Assembly: GCF_009931435.1 (NCBI RefSeq)
Contig: NZ_CP043414.1
DNA from: Escherichia coli
GTDB lineage: Bacteria; Pseudomonadota; Gammaproteobacteria; Enterobacterales; Enterobacteriaceae
DNA: 64,000 bases
Strand: one strand, 5' to 3'
The translations under genes were made by a program, and so were the position numbers. The notes beneath the pieces were generated by a model, which was given only the letters and a program-made list of their open reading frames with translations, made no database searches and had not been told where the DNA came from. Below are positions 16,521 through 64,000 of the stretch, piece after piece; the first letter of the stretch is position 1; each line of letters opens with the position of its first letter.

Positions 16521-17239
16521 CGCAGATGACGACCGCCATCAAGAGGGAAACTGCGTCCGGTGACAAAGCAGCTGGTAAGTAAGTAATCGACCAGGTCGAT
16601 CACTTCTTTCTCGCCAGGCGCGGTTTTCATCAGTGATTTATTCAGCGCCTGTTGTCGATATTCGGCATCATCATGCTCATTAAACAGGATCAGCGATGGC
16701 GCAATAGAATTCACTTTCACTTCCGGTGCCAGCTTGCGGGCAAACGAGCGGGTCATATTATCCAGTGCCGCTTTGCTTGCAGCATAGGCAATATGTTTGT
16801 CGCTACCGCGCTCCACCACATAATCGGTAAAGTGAATGATATCGCTGGCGGCGTGTCCGTGCCCACGCAGTAATCTTTCCAGCGCGTGGTTAAGTAGGTA
16901 TGGGACATTAACGTGGATCTGCATCATGCAGGCCAGTACGTCGGTGAGTGGCATACCTGGTTTTTCTGCCATCCACGCACTGGCATTGTGCAACACCGCA
17001 CGCAGGCCGTGGGTGCTTTTTAGCACTTCATCGGCAAACGCCATCACACCGTCGTTGGTCGAAAAATCAGCCTGAATACACAGCGCACCCGCATTCATCA
17101 GCCCATCAATGGCAGGATAGTGTGTCCGATAGCTGACTATCACCGGTTGCTTTTGATTAATGAAATGCCATGCGAGGGCGAGGCCGATGCGACGGCCGCC
17201 TCCAGTAATTAATATTGGCAAGGGCTGGGTTTTACCCAT
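16517..17239 (-). CDS. folM: dihydromonapterin reductase (SDR)
   Basis: 240-aa ORF with N-terminal GGGRRIG Rossmann motif. Confidence 0.9.
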   Translation of the reverse strand: MGKTQPLPILITGGGRRIGLALAWHFINQKQPVIVSYRTHYPAIDGLMNAGALCIQADFSTNDGVMAFADEVLKSTHGLRAVLHNASAWMAEKPGMPLTDVLACMMQIHVNVPYLLNHALERLLRGHGHAASDIIHFTDYVVERGSDKHIAYAASKAALDNMTRSFARKLAPEVKVNSIAPSLILFNEHDDAEYRQQALNKSLMKTAPGEKEVIDLVDYLLTSCFVTGRSFPLDGGRHLR

Positions 17240-17275
17240 CGTTATCTCCTTTGCTATCCAACGATGGGATGAACG

Positions 17276-54497: not shown

Positions 54498-55523
54498 ATG
54501 GATACTTTTCATAATATTTTGCTTGAGCACATAGACAGCCTTTTAAAAGAGAGACTTGATTTATCTGGTGACGCTGATATCGAAAAAGAAATTAATAACC
54601 TAATTCCCAAAATAGTCATTGTCGTTAAAAAATCTCTTATTGGCTCGGCCAATGCAATGCTTAGAGAACATCGTTCTCTTTGTGATGAATTTGTTGAGAG
54701 AAATATTTCAAGATGGGCAGAGGCTTTTGATTTGCTCGAAACACTTATAGTGATATGCACGGAGTCCGGTGAAGAGTTCAATCGTTCTTATAGACCACAA
54801 GCTGCCTCTGAAGAGGATGTGGTTTTTGATTTAGTCGTTCGGCATCACGCAAGAGCTTGCCACATCGCCAACGAAATTTTGTGTCTCTTAAAGAATGGAT
54901 TTGCAGATGCTGCCCAAGCGAGATGGCGAGCACTTCATGAGGTAGCAGCCACAGCTATGTTTATAGCAAAGCATGGAAAAGAGTGTGCTGAGCGCTTTTA
55001 CTACCATGAAGTGGTTGATTCATATACTGGAATGTTGGAACACAAAAAGTACGAGCACCGGTTAGAAGCAAAAGGTCCAACTATTGAAGAAATAGCTGAG
55101 TGCAAAGTTCAATTTGATCTATTAATAAAAAAATACGGCAAAAAATATGCAGATAATTATGGGTGGGCATCTTATATTTTCCCTAACCATAATAAAGTGG
55201 GGTTTGGAGCTATTGAGAAAGATGTTCAGTTAGAACACATGCGCCCTTATTATAAGTGGGCGAGTCAGAATGTACACACCGGTTCCAAGGCAATGAGAAA
55301 TAGGCTTGGTCTCTGTGAAACTGGTGATGATATATTATTGGTCGGGCAAAGTGATTCAGGAATGGCTGATCCAGCCCATGCTACTGCTATTAGTTTGATG
55401 CAGATTACTGTGACACTTTTATTCTTAAAACCAACCATTGATCATGCCGTCATTTCAAAAATAATACAGGATTATTCTGATGAGATTGGAAATGTATTTC
55501 TTAAAATTGATAAGGGTAATTAA
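54498..55523 (+). CDS. orphan AT-rich hypothetical protein (341 aa from ATG; 345 aa from TTG at 54486), function unknown
   Basis: Uninterrupted 1-kb ORF; visibly AT-rich versus flanks (about 38-40% GC by eye); no TM segments, no P-loop; no recognised homologue. Confidence 0.7.
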   Translation: MDTFHNILLEHIDSLLKERLDLSGDADIEKEINNLIPKIVIVVKKSLIGSANAMLREHRSLCDEFVERNISRWAEAFDLLETLIVICTESGEEFNRSYRPQAASEEDVVFDLVVRHHARACHIANEILCLLKNGFADAAQARWRALHEVAATAMFIAKHGKECAERFYYHEVVDSYTGMLEHKKYEHRLEAKGPTIEEIAECKVQFDLLIKKYGKKYADNYGWASYIFPNHNKVGFGAIEKDVQLEHMRPYYKWASQNVHTGSKAMRNRLGLCETGDDILLVGQSDSGMADPAHATAISLMQITVTLLFLKPTIDHAVISKIIQDYSDEIGNVFLKIDKGN

Positions 55524-55905
55524 AAATTGGAAAAGTGATAGTATATTCTTGTTTTTTTACTGGTAATTAAATGTTTTTAAAGTTACTAGTTCACACCTAT
55601 CGAACGTCCGGTCTTCGCCCAAAGCGGACTAGAAGGTTAGCTTGCGTCGGATTTGGCGTATTTAAAGAATCGCTGGTGGTTACTGGTTGTTGTGTTCCAT
55701 TTCTACAGAACAAAATCACAGAAACTATACCCAATAGTTGTATCTCATCAATGATGAGAGAGCCTCATATTTATCAGGACTGGTGTACGTCCAATACAGG
55801 AGGTTGTCGTGCTGGTTCTCAAATGTGCGCTGGCTATTGCAGCTGTAATGGCAATTTATTGTCTTGCTGTTGTTCTTATGGATCGCCTTTCTGATTGATT
55901 TTATA

Positions 55906-56109
55906 TTGGCCAGGTGACGGGAGTTAAGTAGAATGGCTGCGGGTGCTTGAGGCTATCTGTCTCAGGCATGAACACCAAAGGCAGATAGAGAAAAGCCCCA
56001 GTTAACATTACGCGTCCTGCAAGACGCTTAACATTAATCTGAGGCTCAATCTATGAACGGCAAATCTAGGTTAGCCTCTTACGTGCCGAAAGGCAAGGAG
56101 AAGCAGGCT
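55906..56109 (+). promoter_or_regulatory. hok promoter and 5' leader
   Basis: TTGGCC-17 bp-TAGAAT; leader GCGGGTGCTTGAGG (55939-55952) complementary to 3' CCTCAATGCACCCGC (56315-56329), consistent with hok fold-back pairing. Confidence 0.5.
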
Positions 56110-56265
56110 ATGAAGCAGCAAAAGGCGATGTTAATCGCCCTGATCGTCATCTGTTTAACCGTCATAGTGACGGCACTGGTAACGAGGAAAGACCTCTGCG
56201 AGGTACGAATCCGAACCGGCCAGACGGAGGTCGCTGTCTTCACAGTCTACGAACCTGAGGAGTAA
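56110..56265 (+). CDS. hokD: Hok/Gef-family type I toxin
   Basis: 51-aa MKQQKAMLIALIVICLTVIVTALVTRKDLCEVRIRTGQTEVAVFTVYEPEE, near-identical to K-12 HokD/RelF as recalled. Confidence 0.9.
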   Translation: MKQQKAMLIALIVICLTVIVTALVTRKDLCEVRIRTGQTEVAVFTVYEPEE

Positions 56266-56333
56266 GAGACTTGGCGAGGGAGAAATCCCTCGCCACCTCT
56301 GATGTGTCAGGCATCCTCAATGCACCCGCACTT

Positions 56334-56358
56334 AACCCGCTTCGGCGGGTTTATTTTA
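56334..56358 (+). terminator. intrinsic terminator of hok mRNA
   Basis: AACCCGC-TTCG-GCGGGTT hairpin followed by TATTTTAT. Confidence 0.7.
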
Positions 56359-56723
56359 TCTGTAAATATTTTTATAAAAATAATGCCCACACACAGCATA
56401 AAACAAAAAGTATCACAGATAAAAAAGGAGCGTAATGTGCAGATTTGTTGTTTTCCATATTTACTCACTTTAACATAATCAATATTGATATGGTTGTTGT
56501 TTCGGTGGTTTCAAACGAGATGTTATGGTGATCTGGTAAAATTGCATAACATTAAAATTTAATTTATCTAATCGCTTTTAATAATAAGCGTTGTGTTTAT
56601 CCCAATAATCTGTTGTTTGACTTTTATTCCATTAATGTAGGGGCTTTACACTGGAACCAGTTTATTTATACTTTATACGCCAGCCTGAACAACTGGCACC
56701 TGCTGCGCCAGCAGAGACAACCG

Positions 56724-57002
56724 ATGGCGCACGATACCAAATTACACAATTCTGATGATTCTGCCGTCTTTGCCAGCAGGTGCGGACGGCGTTTTCATGC
56801 ATTCAAATCGGACTGGTTCCAGCATCCACCATGCACTGAAGAGCAGGCTGAATGGATAATTCAGTGTTACCGCAGGCGCGGATACGAGGTTAAAAAAGCC
56901 CTTAGCCTCGACTACCGTCACTGGATAATCTCAGTCAGATTGCCTTACTCCGAACGCCCACCGCGTCCGTCCCACACATTCCAGCAACGCATCTGGAGGT
57001 AA
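56724..57002 (+). CDS. rem: Rem-like prophage protein (start uncertain; ORF opens at 56613)
   Basis: ORF upstream of ydfU in the K-12 Qin rem position; start chosen at first ATG. Confidence 0.45.
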   Translation: MAHDTKLHNSDDSAVFASRCGRRFHAFKSDWFQHPPCTEEQAEWIIQCYRRRGYEVKKALSLDYRHWIISVRLPYSERPPRPSHTFQQRIWR

Positions 57003-57003
57003 C

Positions 57004-58053
57004 GTGCGGGTATTACTTCGACCTGTTCTGGTACCGGAACTCGGGCTGGTGATCGTTAAGCCGGGCCGTGAATCCATGCCGGTATTCCACAATACCCGGT
57101 TACTGGTGGAGCCGGAACCGAAAAGCATGCGTAATCTGCCGTCCGGGGTCGTTCCTGCCGTTGGCCAGCCGCTGGCGGAAGACAAAACATTGCTGCCGTT
57201 TTTTAGTAACGAACGGGTGATTCGTGCTGCTGGCGGCGTTGGCTCATTGTCTGACTGGCTATTACGTCATGTTACATCCTGCCAGTGGCCTAATGGCGAT
57301 TACCATCACACTGAAACAGTCATTCACCGTTATGGTACCGGCGCAATGGTGTTGTGTTGGCACTGCGACAACCAACTGCGTGACCAGACATCGGAATCAC
57401 TGGAGCTGCTTGCTCAACAAAATCTGACAGCATGGGTGATTGACGTCATCCGTCACGCAATAAGCGGTACGCAGGAGCGGGAATTATCTTTGGCTGAATT
57501 ATCCTGGTGGGCGGTCTGCAATCAGGTGGTGGATGCACTACCTGAGGCTGTATCGCGTCGTTCGCTGGGATTACCAGCGGAAAAAATCTGCTCGGTGTAC
57601 CGCGAAAGCGACATCGTACCGGGAGAGCAGACCGCCACCAGCATATTGAAACAACGCACAAAAAATCTTGCACCGTTGCCTTACGCCCACCAGCAACAAA
57701 AACTACCACAGGAAAAGACGGTGGTAAGCATCACCGTTGATCCAGAGTCTCCGGAATCTTTCATGAAGCTGCCTAAACGTCGCCGCTGGGTTAAGGAGAA
57801 ATACACACGTTGGGTTAAGACACAGCCGTGTGCTTGCTGCGGTATGCCAGCCGACGATCCGCATCATCTGATTGGTCACGGGCAGGGCGGAATGGGAACA
57901 AAAGCACATGATCTCTTTGTGTTGCCTTTGTGCAGAAAGCATCACAACGAGCTGCATACGGATACAGTGGCATTTGAAGAGAAGTATGGCTCCCAACTGG
58001 AGCTGATATTTCGTTTTATCGATCGCGCGCTGGCAATTGGCGTACTGGCGTAA
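57004..58053 (+). CDS. ydfU: YdfU-like protein (DUF968) with C-terminal HNH-like Cys/His motif
   Basis: 349-aa ORF, GTG start; CACCG...DDPHHLIGHG...CRKHHNELH. Confidence 0.8.
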   Translation: MRVLLRPVLVPELGLVIVKPGRESMPVFHNTRLLVEPEPKSMRNLPSGVVPAVGQPLAEDKTLLPFFSNERVIRAAGGVGSLSDWLLRHVTSCQWPNGDYHHTETVIHRYGTGAMVLCWHCDNQLRDQTSESLELLAQQNLTAWVIDVIRHAISGTQERELSLAELSWWAVCNQVVDALPEAVSRRSLGLPAEKICSVYRESDIVPGEQTATSILKQRTKNLAPLPYAHQQQKLPQEKTVVSITVDPESPESFMKLPKRRRWVKEKYTRWVKTQPCACCGMPADDPHHLIGHGQGGMGTKAHDLFVLPLCRKHHNELHTDTVAFEEKYGSQLELIFRFIDRALAIGVLA

Positions 58054-58066
58054 GTGGAGAACGAGC

Positions 58067-58819
58067 ATGAACCTTGAAGCCTTACCAAAATATTACTCCC
58101 CAAAATCTCCAAAATTGAGCGATGACGCTCCAGCGACAGGCACCGGTTGTTTAACAATTACGGATGTAATGGCAGCGCAGGGGATGGTGCAGTCGAAAGC
58201 ACCACTTGGGTTGGCCTTATTTCTGGCAAAAGTTGGTGTTCAGGACCCTCAGTTTGCGATTGAAGGCCTGCTAAATTACGCGATGGCACTGGATAACCCG
58301 ACATTGAACAAATTGAGTGAAGAAATCCGGTTACAGATTATTCCTTACCTCGTGAGTTTTGCCTTTGCTGATTACTCCAGGTCTGCGGCAAGTAAGGCTC
58401 GCTGTGAGCATTGTTCAGGTACGGGATTTTATAATGTATTGCGCGAAGTGGTGAAACACTACAGACGCGGGGAATCTGTAATCAAGGAAGAATGGGTGAA
58501 GGAACTATGTCAGCATTGCCATGGTAAGGGCGAAGCCAGCACAGCGTGCAGAGGGTGTAAGGGTAAAGGGATTGTTCTGGATGAAAAAAGAACCCGGTTT
58601 CATGGCGTACCGGTATATAAGATTTGTGGGCGTTGTAATGGAAACCGGTTTAGTCGTTTACCGACCACGCTGGCACGACGTCATGTCCAGAAGCTGGTAC
58701 CAGACCTGACCGATTATCAGTGGTATAAGGGGTATGCGGACGTCATTGGTAAACTGGTAACAAAGTGCTGGCAGGAAGAAGCATACGCGGAAGCGCAATT
58801 GAGGAAGGTGACGAGATAA
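58067..58819 (+). CDS. quuQ: late-gene antiterminator Q-like protein
   Basis: ORF 58037..58819; start at MNLEALPKYY (250 aa); four CxxC zinc-finger repeats. Confidence 0.85.
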   Translation: MNLEALPKYYSPKSPKLSDDAPATGTGCLTITDVMAAQGMVQSKAPLGLALFLAKVGVQDPQFAIEGLLNYAMALDNPTLNKLSEEIRLQIIPYLVSFAFADYSRSAASKARCEHCSGTGFYNVLREVVKHYRRGESVIKEEWVKELCQHCHGKGEASTACRGCKGKGIVLDEKRTRFHGVPVYKICGRCNGNRFSRLPTTLARRHVQKLVPDLTDYQWYKGYADVIGKLVTKCWQEEAYAEAQLRKVTR

Positions 58820-58850
58820 ATGATTTTTGCTGAAGATGGCGACATGATGT

Positions 58851-58879
58851 TTGCATTTTTCAAAAAATATGGATAAAAT
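58851..58879 (+). promoter_or_regulatory. candidate late promoter (pR'-like)
   Basis: TTGCAT-17 bp-TAAAAT, about 30 bp after Q stop and 50 bp before a strong terminator. Confidence 0.35.
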
Positions 58880-58926
58880 TTTTTCAACGATGGGCTTTGT
58901 ATACCCGACGTTAAGAAAAAGTAGAA

Positions 58927-58955
58927 AACCCGCTGATGAGCGGGTTTTGTGCTTT
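58927..58955 (+). terminator. intrinsic terminator after Q (tR'-like)
   Basis: AACCCGCT-GATG-AGCGGGTT stem followed by TTGTGCTTT. Confidence 0.7.
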
Positions 58956-59240
58956 AAATGGGGCAATGGTAATGTTGAATCTCATCCCGGGACTCATGTC
59001 TGTTAACTTATTATTTAGCTGGTGACTTGGTTATTTGCCTGATGTTTAAAATGTTTTCTTCCAGTACAATGCCCCTAAACACAATGAGTCTGCTTATTAT
59101 ATTATTAGCAGAGCTATTACGGCCAAAGTACAGCATAAGCTTTTAAAGCCAATCAACCAGTCATCAAGACAGACGGGGTTATTCATAAAAACTCTCCATG
59201 TGTGATCCGATGGGGCCTGAAATTAAAGCTTTAATATAGC

Positions 59241-59453
59241 TCATGAAAGGTAAACATTGGCAGCTGAAGGGCCACGCAGACCATTTATCCGGCAAAATTC
59301 CACGCGTAATCCGGTGGTAATTTCTTCTGCATCGCGGAGATTGAGCGCTGAAACATGAAGCTGGACATCGATACGACCATCGGATGGGGTGATAAGACCC
59401 TTGCCGCTTTTGCCGTCAAAGGTTTTGACAATTCCTGTCATTTTACGGGACAA
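59241..59453 (-). CDS. cspF: cold-shock-domain protein CspF-like
   Basis: 70-aa CSD ORF divergent from cspB. Confidence 0.85.
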
Positions 59454-59753
59454 AAAAATTCCTTAATACTGATAACTTGGCGCACTATACACACGTTCCT
59501 GAAGAAAGCTATAGTTTTTTGATGGGGTTGAAGATGGCTGGATGTCTAAAATAAACATTGCTTCATATGTTCAACTATGCGTTAATGATTGCGTCGGTTT
59601 GAAGAACAGACGATATACGAAGTAGTTTACTAAAGCAGTTCTCATTTCAGGTGTTATTCACTTATTCCTTCTTTGAGTCTCTCCAATTAAGTACGAAGTC
59701 GTTTCTGTTATGCAAACCATTTATGCCGAAAGGCTCAAGTTAAGGAATGTAGA

Positions 59754-59969
59754 ATGTCAAATAAAATGACTGGTTTAGTAAAATGGTTTAACGCTGATAA
59801 AGGTTTCGGCTTTATTTCTCCTGTTGATGGTAGTAAAGATGTGTTTGTGCATTTTTCTGCGATTCAGAATGATAATTATCGAACCTTATTTGAAGGTCAA
59901 AAGGTTACCTTCTCTATAGAGAGTGGTGCTAAAGGTCCTGCAGCAGCAAATGTCATCATTACTGATTAA
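59754..59969 (+). CDS. cspB: cold-shock protein CspB
   Basis: 71-aa ORF with RNP1-like KGFGFI motif; about 300-nt upstream leader typical of cold-shock genes. Confidence 0.9.
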
Positions 59970-60250
59970 AATTCATCGCTCGTCTGTATACGATAACGAA
60001 GAAGGCTGATGCCTGAGTAGAGATACGGACAGAGTAGTGAATATTGGATTTCTTTAATAAAAATTAAGGAGGTCCAATACATGAAACAATGGCCAGCATA
60101 TTTGGCAAAATCTTAATCAGGAAAAGTATGCTAACCATTGTGGTGAAGTGCAGGTTTGCTGCATGAATAGTTTTACAGCAGAAGCTAACTGCTGGCATGG
60201 CAAAACAAAGTGCGTAAGTGGATGACTCCCACAAAAAGCACCACAATCTC

Positions 60251-60275
60251 AAACCCGCTCAGGCGGGTTTTTTAT
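60251..60275 (+). terminator. intrinsic terminator
   Basis: AAACCCGC-TCAG-GCGGGTTT hairpin followed by T4. Confidence 0.7.
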
Positions 60276-60332
60276 TATCTGCTTTAAATATATTATTAAA
60301 ATATAAAAAATACTTGTTACTAATAAAATCAA

Positions 60333-60503
60333 TCAGGCTACAGCTTTAAGATTTGTCTGGAATACTTTGTTGCAATGAGGGCAGATCAAAAGGGCACCTT
60401 TTTGTACTCTTGAAAAACTGTGTTCTGACTCTTGGGTGCAGTTTGGGCAGGAACATTTAACGAGATAATTACGGCGTGATTTTGAGTCTTTACGTTCTGA
60501 CAT
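60333..60503 (-). CDS. ydfK: YdfK/YnaE-like zinc-ribbon protein
   Basis: ORF 60333..60554; start at MSERKDSKSRRNY (56 aa) with AGGAAA RBS; CSCPNC...CPHC. Confidence 0.6.
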   Translation of the reverse strand: MSERKDSKSRRNYLVKCSCPNCTQESEHSFSRVQKGALLICPHCNKVFQTNLKAVA

Positions 60504-60722
60504 AGGCTTTTCCTGTATAAATGGCCGTATACAGTACACTAAATATGAAAACATTTCTCGTATTATTATTTTATATATGACTTTCTTTCAAAATAATTAC
60601 TCACATTTTTAATGTGTATGTTTCTTTAGCGCCGTTGAGAACAGCGTGTGCTGTCAAAACTACCCCGTAGACTCCGATCTTTTCAAACATATTGCACCAT
60701 CCGTGTACATCGGGGTGAGGAT

Positions 60723-60938
60723 ATGAAATCAATGGATAAGTTAACAACAGGTGTTGCCTATGGCACATCGGCGGGTAATGCTGGTTTCTGGGCATTGCAG
60801 TTACTCGATAAAGTAACTCCGTCACAGTGGGCTGCAATCGGTGTGCTGGGTAGCCTGGTTTTTGGCCTGCTGACGTATCTGACAAATCTTTATTTCAAGA
60901 TTAAAGAAGACAGGCGTAAGGCTGCGAGAGGAGAGTAA
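60723..60938 (+). CDS. essQ: phage 21 S-type pinholin (dual-start)
   Basis: ORF 60648..60938; start at MKSMDKL (Met1/Met4) after GGGGTGAGG RBS; 71 aa resembling S21 as recalled. Confidence 0.85.
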
Positions 60939-60942
60939 TCCA

Positions 60943-61250
60943 ATGACTCAAGACTATGAACTGGTCGTGAAAGGAGTCCGTAATTTTGAGAATAAAGTTA
61001 CGGTAACTGTAGCCTTACAGGACAAAGAACGCTTTGACGGTGAAATTTTTGACCTGGATGTCGCCATGGACCGTGTTGAAGGAGCTGCGCTGGAGTTTTA
61101 TGAGGCAGCAGCCAGAAGGAGCGTCCGGCAAGTCTTCCTGGAAGTAGCAGAAAAATTGTCAGAAAAAGTTGAGTCTTATCTGCAGCATCAGTACTCCTTT
61201 AAGATTGAAAATCCTGCCAATAAGCACGAGCGTCCTCATCATAAATATAT

Positions 61251-61254
<4 letters not shown>
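60943..61254 (+). CDS. ydfR: YdfR-like protein (DUF1327)
   Basis: 103-aa ORF between holin and endolysin. Confidence 0.7.
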
Positions 61255-62278
<1,024 letters not shown>

Positions 62279-62641
62279 GGTAATATTAAATCGGAACATT
62301 TACATCGCGGAATGTAAAATTTAAATAAAAAGGACTCTTCCATGAGCCAAAATTCCTGAAATCTTAAGGGTAAGATAAAAGGTCTTAATCAGAATGACAC
62401 GTTATTATTAATAAATAAAGCTATTCTTTCATTGCTGTGTTTTTCTTTACAAAAGTAATCCTTGCTATGGGTGGTTAATCATGCGTTAATGGTGTTCTGG
62501 TTTGTTACAAATTTATCTGAAGCAGTCATTGTTATAATTTTATTATTTGTACCTCTTGAGATTTCCTTGTTGGTTTTTCTCTCTGATATTTTTTTTCGGA
62601 CCATTCTGCCCAAGGGCTAATTTCTTCAAAAGGTAATAATT

Positions 62642-62854
62642 ATGTCTAACAAAATGACTGGTTTAGTGAAATGGTTTAACCCTGAAAAAGGTTTTGGTTT
62701 CATCACGCCGAAAGATGGCAGCAAAGATGTGTTTGTCCATTTCTCAGCAATTCAGAGCAACGATTTCAAAACATTAACTGAGAATCAGGAAGTTGAATTT
62801 GGTATTGAGAACGGACCTAAAGGCCCTGCCGCTGTTCATGTAGTGGCGCTTTGA
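62642..62854 (+). CDS. cspI: cold-shock protein CspI
   Basis: 70-aa CSD ORF with KGFGFI motif and AT-rich leader. Confidence 0.9.
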
Positions 62855-63058
62855 GGTAGACAATATTACAAACCATATTCACTTTAGATGCCCGTGTTGT
62901 CATGGTTCCCAGTATAGAACATCATCTTTTGATGTTTCTGACATGAATCCTTTCGGGGCAAAATGTATCTTTTGTAAATCAATGATGATTACATTTGATA
63001 ATATTTCACAATACTTAAATGCCAGCCGTCTGTCGTTGGATTTAAAAAAGTGAAAATG

Positions 63059-63081
63059 AAGGCTCCTTCGGGAGCTTTTTT
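63059..63081 (+). terminator. intrinsic terminator after cspI
   Basis: AAGGCTCC-TTCG-GGAGCTTTTTT. Confidence 0.7.
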
Positions 63082-63125
63082 GCTTGGTATCTATTCGATG
63101 GATACTCACATACTACGGTAACATC

Positions 63126-63356
63126 ATGAAAAAAATCATAGTTTTTTTTAACTCTGAACCAGCAGTGGTAGTGCCAGCGATGACTGGAGTTAACACCATC
63201 ATGCGTGAATATCCAAATGGCGAAAAAACACACCTTACTGTAATGGCCGCAGGGTTTCCATCTCTGACCGGAGATCATAAAGTCATTTATGTAGCCGCGG
63301 ATCGACATGTTACTTCAGAAGAAATTCTGGAAGCAGCAATAAGGCTCTTGAGTTGA
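63126..63356 (+). CDS. hypothetical protein (YnfN-like position)
   Basis: ORF 63084..63356 (TTG); first ATG at 63126 gives 76 aa; identity not recognised with confidence. Confidence 0.4.
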   Translation: MKKIIVFFNSEPAVVVPAMTGVNTIMREYPNGEKTHLTVMAAGFPSLTGDHKVIYVAADRHVTSEEILEAAIRLLS

Positions 63357-63527
63357 TTTGATGCTATTGTATTGATAATTCAGGAAAATTCTCTTTGTCT
63401 GTTTGTGTAAAATTTAGACTATCGTATGTTGATTATTGCGATGTTTCATCTTATCTTTTACACGTTTGCACCATATAATCGACTTACTGTGTAACTGGAA
63501 AGTCATAACAGACTAAAAGAGGAAATG

Positions 63528-63701
63528 ATGAATATTGAAAACTTAAAAACAAAAGCAGAAGCAGATATTTCTGAATATATAACAAAAAAAATTATTGAAC
63601 TTAAGAAAAAGACCGGGAAAGAAGTTACCAGTATTCAGTTTACCGCACGGGAAAAAATGACGGGTCTTGAAAGCTATGATGTCAAGATTAATTTAATCTG
63701 A
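63528..63701 (+). CDS. gnsB: GnsA/GnsB-family protein
   Basis: 57-codon ORF by manual translation (MNIENLKTKAEADISEYITKKIIELKKKTGKEV...), AAGAGGAAA RBS; below ORF-track cutoff. Confidence 0.75.
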   Translation: MNIENLKTKAEADISEYITKKIIELKKKTGKEVTSIQFTAREKMTGLESYDVKINLI

Positions 63702-64000
63702 TGTATTCAATAATAAAATTTATCCATAAACCTCGTTTTTACGGGGTTTTGTTATATTTGAATGGTTCCGAATATCTAAATCACAATTGTTGATGGTTTT
63801 TATTAAACCAATGCAGTCCGGCTCAGGAGTGAGAGAAGCCGGACGTTATGGTTTAGCGTGGTAAGATCTGTGTAGTTTTCTGGATGCTTTCAGTAAATAG
63901 TAATGAGTTATCAAAGGCATAGTAATATCTTTGGTGTTCCTGGATATTTGTAACCCATCGGAAAACTCCTGCTTTAGCAAGATTTTCCCTGTATTGTTGA

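Follow-up and report, generated by a model that had tools for sequence, protein, structure and literature searches.

ECS025, a small RNA of Escherichia coli K-12, as the terminated leader of a probable lambda-type Q-pR'-tR' cassette in the Qin cryptic prophage

In phage lambda the Q gene is followed by a sigma70 promoter (pR'), a pause element, a terminator (tR') and the lysis genes, and a Q-dependent late cassette of this kind has been defined in general terms (Yin et al. 2022; Wells et al. 2016). The -10-like AACGAT of lambda is a sigma70-dependent pause element required for Q loading (Yin et al. 2022; Wells et al. 2016). The Q-binding element (QBE) sits between the -35 and -10 boxes (Wells et al. 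2016). It is bipartite, and the contacts fall at positions 1-4 and 11-13 (Yin et al. 2022). A -35-like element by the pause site docks sigma region 4 in lambda; it is accessory and lies outside the general definition of the cassette (Yin et al. 2022). Gene 23 with P-late in P22 and gene 17 with pR' in phi80 belong to the same Q family, carry the pause motifs AACGATGG and AACGCTGGG, respectively, and have a short leader of about 60-75 nt that runs to an intrinsic terminator. The Q21 and Q82 cassettes follow the same logic, with a Q-binding site and a sigma-dependent pause ahead of a terminator, but their Q families are structurally unrelated, their Q proteins bind as dimers and the pause is positioned differently (+25 in phage 82). 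The study of Stx pR' regions by Zhang et al. 2018 contains nothing specific to Q proteins of the QuuQ type, which are the subject here.

The region lies in Qin, a cryptic prophage of E. coli K-12, and the window (the whole 64,000-nt stretch of DNA that was analysed) is 99.9% identical to K-12. Position x of the window is position 1701308 - x of NC_000913.3, and the plus strand of the window is the minus strand of K-12. The genes are arranged in the order ydfU, ydfT/quuQ, cspF (minus strand), cspB, ynfU (minus strand), essQ, ydfR, rrrQ, rzpQ and cspI. An earlier note, made from the letters alone, had proposed a TTGCAT-17-TAAAAT promoter shortly past the Q stop, a terminator downstream of it, a short terminated transcript like the lambda 6S RNA, and lysis genes about 1.8 kb further on with csp genes between. 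All four proposals hold up against the comparisons and the published data assembled below. We consider it very probable that 58851-58955 is the late regulatory cassette of Qin, made up of pR' with its sigma70-dependent pause element and of tR', and that it is cognate to the upstream QuuQ/YdfT; its transcript would most likely be extended by Q into the lysis genes. The biology is that of a textbook lambda-type Q/pR'/tR' cassette, and its transcript has already been published under another name. The features are as follows.

58067..58819, plus strand: Q antiterminator gene ydfT/quuQ (250 aa), from the PF03589 and 7UBM matches and the K-12 annotation as ydfT
58851..58856, plus strand: pR' -35 hexamer TTGCAT, invariant in 33 distinct QuuQ-type sequences and in the same place as the annotated phi80 pR' -35 TTGCAT
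58857..58873, plus strand: 17-nt spacer TTTTCAAAAAATATGGA, candidate Q-binding element by inference from the invariant blocks TTTCAAAAAA and TGG
58874..58879, plus strand: pR' -10 hexamer TAAAAT (TAAAAT, TAAGAT or TAGGAT in relatives)
58886..58894, plus strand: start of transcription at A58886, together with the sigma70-dependent pause element AACGATGGG, from lambda identity, P22 annotation and the published start
58886..58912, plus strand: 5'-terminal RNA hairpin predicted from folding and comparison, with AACG.UGGG paired to CCCG.CGUU
58913..58924, plus strand: A-rich single-stranded linker AAGAAAAAGUAG, unpaired in the minimum-energy and centroid folds and variable in relatives
58925..58955, plus strand: tR' intrinsic terminator, a stem-loop at 58925-58948 with U-tract UUUUGUGCUUU, from the hairpin, Term-seq and homology
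58886..58952, plus strand: terminated pR' leader RNA of ~67 nt, the sRNA ECS025, from published transcript ends
60723..62278, plus strand: lysis cassette essQ-ydfR-rrrQ-rzpQ, the first late genes downstream, from ORFs and annotation

Judged by its sequence, YdfT/QuuQ is an antiterminator of the lambda Q family. A profile search matches it to Pfam PF03589 (E = 3.6e-54), to the lambda Q structure 7UBM (cryo-EM chain; E = 4.6e-36) in the two stretches 1-120 and 160-250, and to a second lambda Q structure, 4MO1 (E = 1.1e-23). The model for the DnaJ central domain, DnaJ_CXXCXGXG, also scores above its curated Pfam cut-off in QuuQ, which has four CXXCXGXG zinc motifs (in the region of protein residues ~113-200) whereas lambda Q has two. 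The two extra motifs are added by an insertion of about 40 aa that falls in the zinc-ribbon 'arm', the part which in lambda touches DNA and sigma region 4. Long Q proteins are also found in phi80 and in Klebsiella and Salmonella phages (254-273 aa).

The Q ORF stops with TAA at 58817-58819, and 31 nt beyond the stop begins the promoter at 58851-58879, with TTGCAT, a 17-nt spacer, TAAAAT, a further 6 nt and then AACGATGGG. Such hexamers alone prove nothing, because promoter-like sites occur here at the background rate (15 in 8 kb in a consensus scan, against 16.7 +/- 3.8 in shuffles) and this one scores only 9/12. By contrast with the hexamers, the composite TTGCAT-N16-18-TAAAAT-N5-7-AACGAT has a single match in the window, and 100 shuffles gave none. 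The site was identified as pR'/tR' because of homology, selective conservation and a mosaic boundary at 58948, and not because of the motif alone.

The promoter can be aligned with lambda pR' base for base; at the start of transcription, AACGATGGG at 58886-58894 is identical to lambda pR' from +1 to +9 and places the -10-like AACGAT at +1 to +6; the pause element is thus present as a motif, and pausing is predicted from it. Lambda and Qin also agree in the 17-nt spacer and in the 6-nt gap between the -10 box and +1. They differ in the -35 box (TTGCAT in Qin, TTGACT in lambda) and in the accessory element: lambda has a -35-like TTGACT beside the pause element, one base upstream, whereas the bases there in Qin are TTTTTT (58879-58884) before C58885. 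Within rstB there are two more copies of AACGATGGG, at 17235 and 17260, in opposite orientation to each other (17235-17268). We considered these as Q-related sites and judged them to be a chance inverted repeat.

Conservation in this region is selective. Among 33 distinct QuuQ-type sequences, the -35 box has no variable column out of 6, the pause element has 2 of 9 and the spacer has 4 of 17, with the TTTCAAAAAA and TGG blocks invariant. In the 3' coding end of Q and the upstream intergenic stretch about 60% of the columns vary, and the most variable promoter segment is that between -10 and +1 (5/6), a T/C-rich segment that reads TTTTTC in Qin. The Qin spacer equals the lambda spacer at 11 of 17 positions when the two are compared directly, and its conserved blocks resemble the bipartite lambda Q site, which suggests a candidate Q-binding element. 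Phi80 has in common with Qin the TTGCAT -35 box and a TGGA just ahead of the -10 box. The Q proteins of Qin and of P22 or phi80 are 33-37% identical and, since their spacer (putative Q-binding) sequences differ, are probably not interchangeable.

The mapping of the 5' end and the Northern analysis that the earlier note had called for are already to be found in published K-12 data. In the dataset of Romero et al. 2014 there is a Class I start, meaning TAP-enriched and at the leading edge of transcription, at U00096.2 1640444-1640447 on the reverse strand. The same dataset has an sRNA named 'ECS025' in the cspF-ydfT spacer, at 1640375-1640447 and 72 nt long by global RNA-seq. We took the offset between genome versions as 1976, which fits the 3' end of the cspB 5'-UTR (1639658 versus 1641634). 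This places the start cluster at window 58885-58888, which is 6-7 nt past the -10 box and compares with a predicted +1 at 58886. This start was recorded in uninduced K-12, so the sigma70 promoter that follows Q needs no phage factor for its activity. Shinhara et al. 2011 described ECS025 as a 60-nt contig of small-RNA sequencing with a predicted sigma70 promoter, and detected it as a ~65-nt Northern band in both total and low-molecular-weight RNA. It was present in every condition tested, with a 2-3-fold increase in cold shock and no change on mitomycin C or UV (Shinhara et al. 2011). The lack of a response to mitomycin C or UV fits a constitutive pR', and offers no hint that the late operon is activated in K-12.

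The other end of the RNA is an 'orphan' Term-seq 3' end at 1642356(-), or window 58952, listed by Adams et al. 2021 in three of three growth conditions. It lies 8 nt past the G-C stem of tR' and 133 nt past the ydfT stop. Taken together, the published 5' start and 3' end give a primary transcript of 67 nt, 58886-58952. Constitutive sigma70 initiation at about A58886 and termination at about 58952 thus produce a stable RNA of ~67 nt, which is ECS025. A constitutive short RNA is likewise made in lambda, but the 6S RNA has 193 nt, and the Qin leader is nearer in length to the short leaders of the P22/phi80 type. The 2014 table of Romero et al. records ECS025 as absent from EcoCyc, EcoGene, Rfam, BSRD, NCBI Gene and RegulonDB, and in the papers and searches that we consulted there was neither a link of ECS025 to pR'/tR' nor a named Qin pR'.

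A second Term-seq 3' end, at NC_000913.3 1642188(-), corresponds to window ~59120 (+), 168 nt beyond tR' and antisense to ynfS. It was listed in one of three growth conditions, apparently LB at OD 2.0 (stationary phase), and suggests either some Q-independent read-through of tR' or a separate start or transcript.

The 67-nt RNA is predicted to fold with -26.2 kcal/mol (z = -5.55). Its 5'-terminal hairpin, in which the pause element as transcribed (AACGA, +1 to +5) pairs with a downstream (U/A)CGUU around a loop of 6-13 nt, recurs in 9 of 11 lineages, where shuffles give an expectation of about 0.16 per lineage. The hairpin is present in 51 of 76 distinct leaders; the comparison took in window 58886-58912 and the loci L003, L100, L093, L095, L097, L098, L101 and L104-L263. 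We entertain, as a tentative and rather doubtful idea, that the ECS025 leader is more than a by-product, either acting in trans like StxS or through a function of the 5'-terminal hairpin itself. The hairpin could shield a very long late mRNA from 5'-end-dependent decay, or it could be a stopper that holds the RNA threaded in the Q nozzle.

A stronger form of this idea, namely that the RNA is primarily a free-standing gene (a moron) for a trans-acting regulatory sRNA and that its position after Q is incidental, seems to us unlikely. ECS025 is stable, constitutive and induced by cold, and it is sRNA-like in shape, with a 5' hairpin, an A-rich single strand containing ARN-like triplets and a terminator hairpin. 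There is also a precedent in StxS (EcOnc15, of Stx1 and Stx2a phages), a pR' leader able to act in trans; StxS and IsrK (of Gifsy-1) are, like ECS025, short constitutive RNAs made in the lysogen from an antitermination-controlled late promoter. StxS, however, belongs to another Q/pR' type, is processed from a 258-nt transcript, is bound by Hfq and has known targets, unlike what is known of ECS025: lower levels in an hfq mutant were named by Shinhara et al. 2011 for ECS007 and ECS009 only. A trans role of ECS025 is without a known target, and would add to the pR'/tR' function and not replace it. Conservation, moreover, falls on the DNA-level elements (promoter, spacer and pause element), whereas the linker, where a seed would be placed, is the most variable transcribed part. 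An Rfam scan of 55000-64000 assigned no family to 58886-58952, its only matches being cspA thermoregulators and sok. The sok antitoxin RNA lies at hokD, at 55941-56115 (+).

The terminator of the proposed cassette is the 10-bp hairpin AAAACCCGC-TGATGA-GCGGGTTTT at 58925-58948, which begins 45 nt past the -10 box and is followed by GTGCTTT; its U-tract has just four uninterrupted U. The arms are symmetric (A-tract and T-tract), and on structural grounds the hairpin could act in both directions. Read differently, it would serve mainly to end ydfT (early) or convergent cspF-ynfS transcription, with the promoter hexamers there by chance. The symmetry would suit this reading, as would the fact that the scan calls the hairpin a minus-strand terminator, the chance rate of promoter-like hexamers and the short distance from the ydfT stop to the RNA 3' end. 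Against it stand a TAP-enriched, leading-edge start at the proper distance from the -10 box, a Northern band of the size of the short RNA, and the listing of the 3' end of Adams et al. on the pR' strand only. The phages, in addition, show the module without cspF. We therefore regard this reading as very improbable.

The phage comparison was made at two depths. Homology that spans the Q gene, the promoter and the terminator is found in SfV, mEp460, Ayreon, SKA5, Stx2c-converting phages and Salmonella phages, and in most of these records it ends at 58948, the end of the terminator stem. This argues that the promoter and terminator are passed on together with Q, independently of cspF; SfV, Ayreon, Stx2c phages and Salmonella phages have the module but not cspF beside it. 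The site equivalent to tR' is annotated as a terminator in SfV and Ayreon. The tR' hairpin is retained in 23 variants while its loop changes freely. Covariation is weak, since the first IMG/VR scan gave only relatives of at least 94% identity: the changes are mostly one-sided (G-C to G-U) and a single pair shows a double change, and the retention is consistent.

Two further scans with distant Q proteins as queries gave the family-wide picture. The same layout recurs in lambda, HK620, P22, SF6, phi80, SPN3UB, and in a Klebsiella, a Proteus and a Yersinia phage (Q identity 33-42%), and consists of a -35 box, 17 nt, a -10 box, 6-7 nt and (A/T)AACG(A/C)TGGG. [quoted passage not shown] The motif is present in 76 distinct family leaders, 72 of which have a terminator-like site. 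The implied leader RNAs are about 55-80 nt long (median 62), and the lambda leader of 193 nt is the outlier.

Beyond tR' the arrangement in Qin is unlike that in lambda. The holin start at 60723 lies 1.84 kb downstream, and the intervening DNA holds cspF (minus strand), cspB and ynfU (minus strand), in other words about 1.8 kb with csp genes, one of them antisense, between tR' and the holin. A scan also finds a terminator-like site after cspB, at 60251-60270. One might suppose that late transcription really starts from a promoter directly before the holin gene essQ and that the site after Q is a relic. Such a gap, with csp genes that have their own promoters, is unusual for lambda, and a weak promoter-like site does occur at 60570-60597. 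However, phages with this holin type are alike only from about 12 nt before the start codon, so that no promoter travels with the holin, and the available part of the start sites of Romero et al. 2014 has no reverse-strand start between cspB and essQ. In other phages with the QuuQ-type module, too, the holin is preceded by 1.5-2.5 kb of accessory genes with additional terminators. PhiR42_1, a complete phage, has the same Q-pR'-tR'-csp-lysis-structural order, its block running on into terminase, head and tail genes as expected of a late operon. A late promoter immediately upstream of the holin, the outcome that the earlier note had named as speaking against its proposal, is thus without support, and we give this explanation very little weight.

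PhiR42_1 (L102, PV340562.1) has a genome of 48.7 kb and, across the late switch, shares 99.9-100% identity with the window. It begins with immunity of the dicA/dicC type, followed by relBE, hokD and Q; the csp genes come next, then the lysis genes, lambda-like head and tail genes and pinQ. This genome gives a picture of Qin in its intact state.

Least credible of all is that the site codes for a small protein, the 51-codon ORF at 58851-59006, a hypothetical protein according to one phage record, that of PhiR42_1: we rejected this ORF as a gene on its start position (a TTG inside the -35 box and upstream of the mapped transcription start), on the missing ribosome-binding site (the only in-frame AUG in the RNA, at +4, has a 3-nt leader and none, and its frame enters the terminator without a stop codon) and on a pattern of conservation that tracks promoter elements and not codons.

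We return, then, to a Q-dependent late cassette, and propose the following course of events by homology to lambda. Host RNA polymerase initiates at pR', and sigma region 2 would then rebind the non-template AACGAT at +1 to +6, pausing the early elongation complex. QuuQ would bind the conserved spacer between the -35 and -10 boxes and, probably with NusA, load onto the paused complex. Polymerase modified in this way by Q would then ignore tR' and later terminators, including that at 60251-60270. Read-through would run antisense through cspF, then through cspB, and into essQ-ydfR-rrrQ-rzpQ, and in intact relatives would continue to the structural genes; it is gene order that points to this Q-dependent read-through into the late genes. 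The K-12 prophage is cryptic, and so normally the short RNA alone would be made.

On this reading, an orphan K-12 small RNA and an 'orphan' Term-seq 3' end gain a functional identity. Judged by its sequence, the late switch of this cryptic prophage has also stayed intact, which bears on how the lysis and cold-shock genes of Qin could be activated. SfV, mEp460-like phages and a set of Stx2c-converting phages have this Q-pR'-tR' module at the head of their late regions. The properties of the module may set the late-gene output in those phages, and perhaps their toxin output. We also considered a link to the 'Q21' PCR marker of low-toxin STEC and rejected it: the primer sequence occurs in none of the loci that were compared, and the Q described here is of the lambda family and not of the Q21 family.

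Other RNAs surround the cassette. Rfam places cspA-type thermoregulator leaders before cspB (59593-59985, +) and before cspI (62496-62881, +), and the late operon therefore includes cold-shock genes with their own regulatory RNAs. Upstream, the space between rem and ydfU gives rise to IGRSTe, an intergenic transcript of 123 nt known from the literature, at window 56677-56800 (+), which is U00096.2 1642532-1642655(-). IGRSTe starts from a site of its own, and Term-seq gives it a 3' end at 1644572(-), window 56736.

In one Stx2c-converting phage (L008, 2560-5188) the Q-pR'-tR' module is followed by a lipoprotein-like ORF, a DNA methylase, tRNA-Met and tRNA-Arg, and its Q differs from the 'Q21' allele that serves as a PCR marker in STEC typing. 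Phage HannyBb (L006) has a degenerate copy of the promoter directly after Q, with the -35 box TTGTAT and the pause motif AATGATGAG, and 1.6 kb downstream a second, intact copy of a Qin-like pR'/tR' preceded by a remnant of the Q 3' end (865-1060 and 2499-2755). This double promoter looks like a recombination scar.
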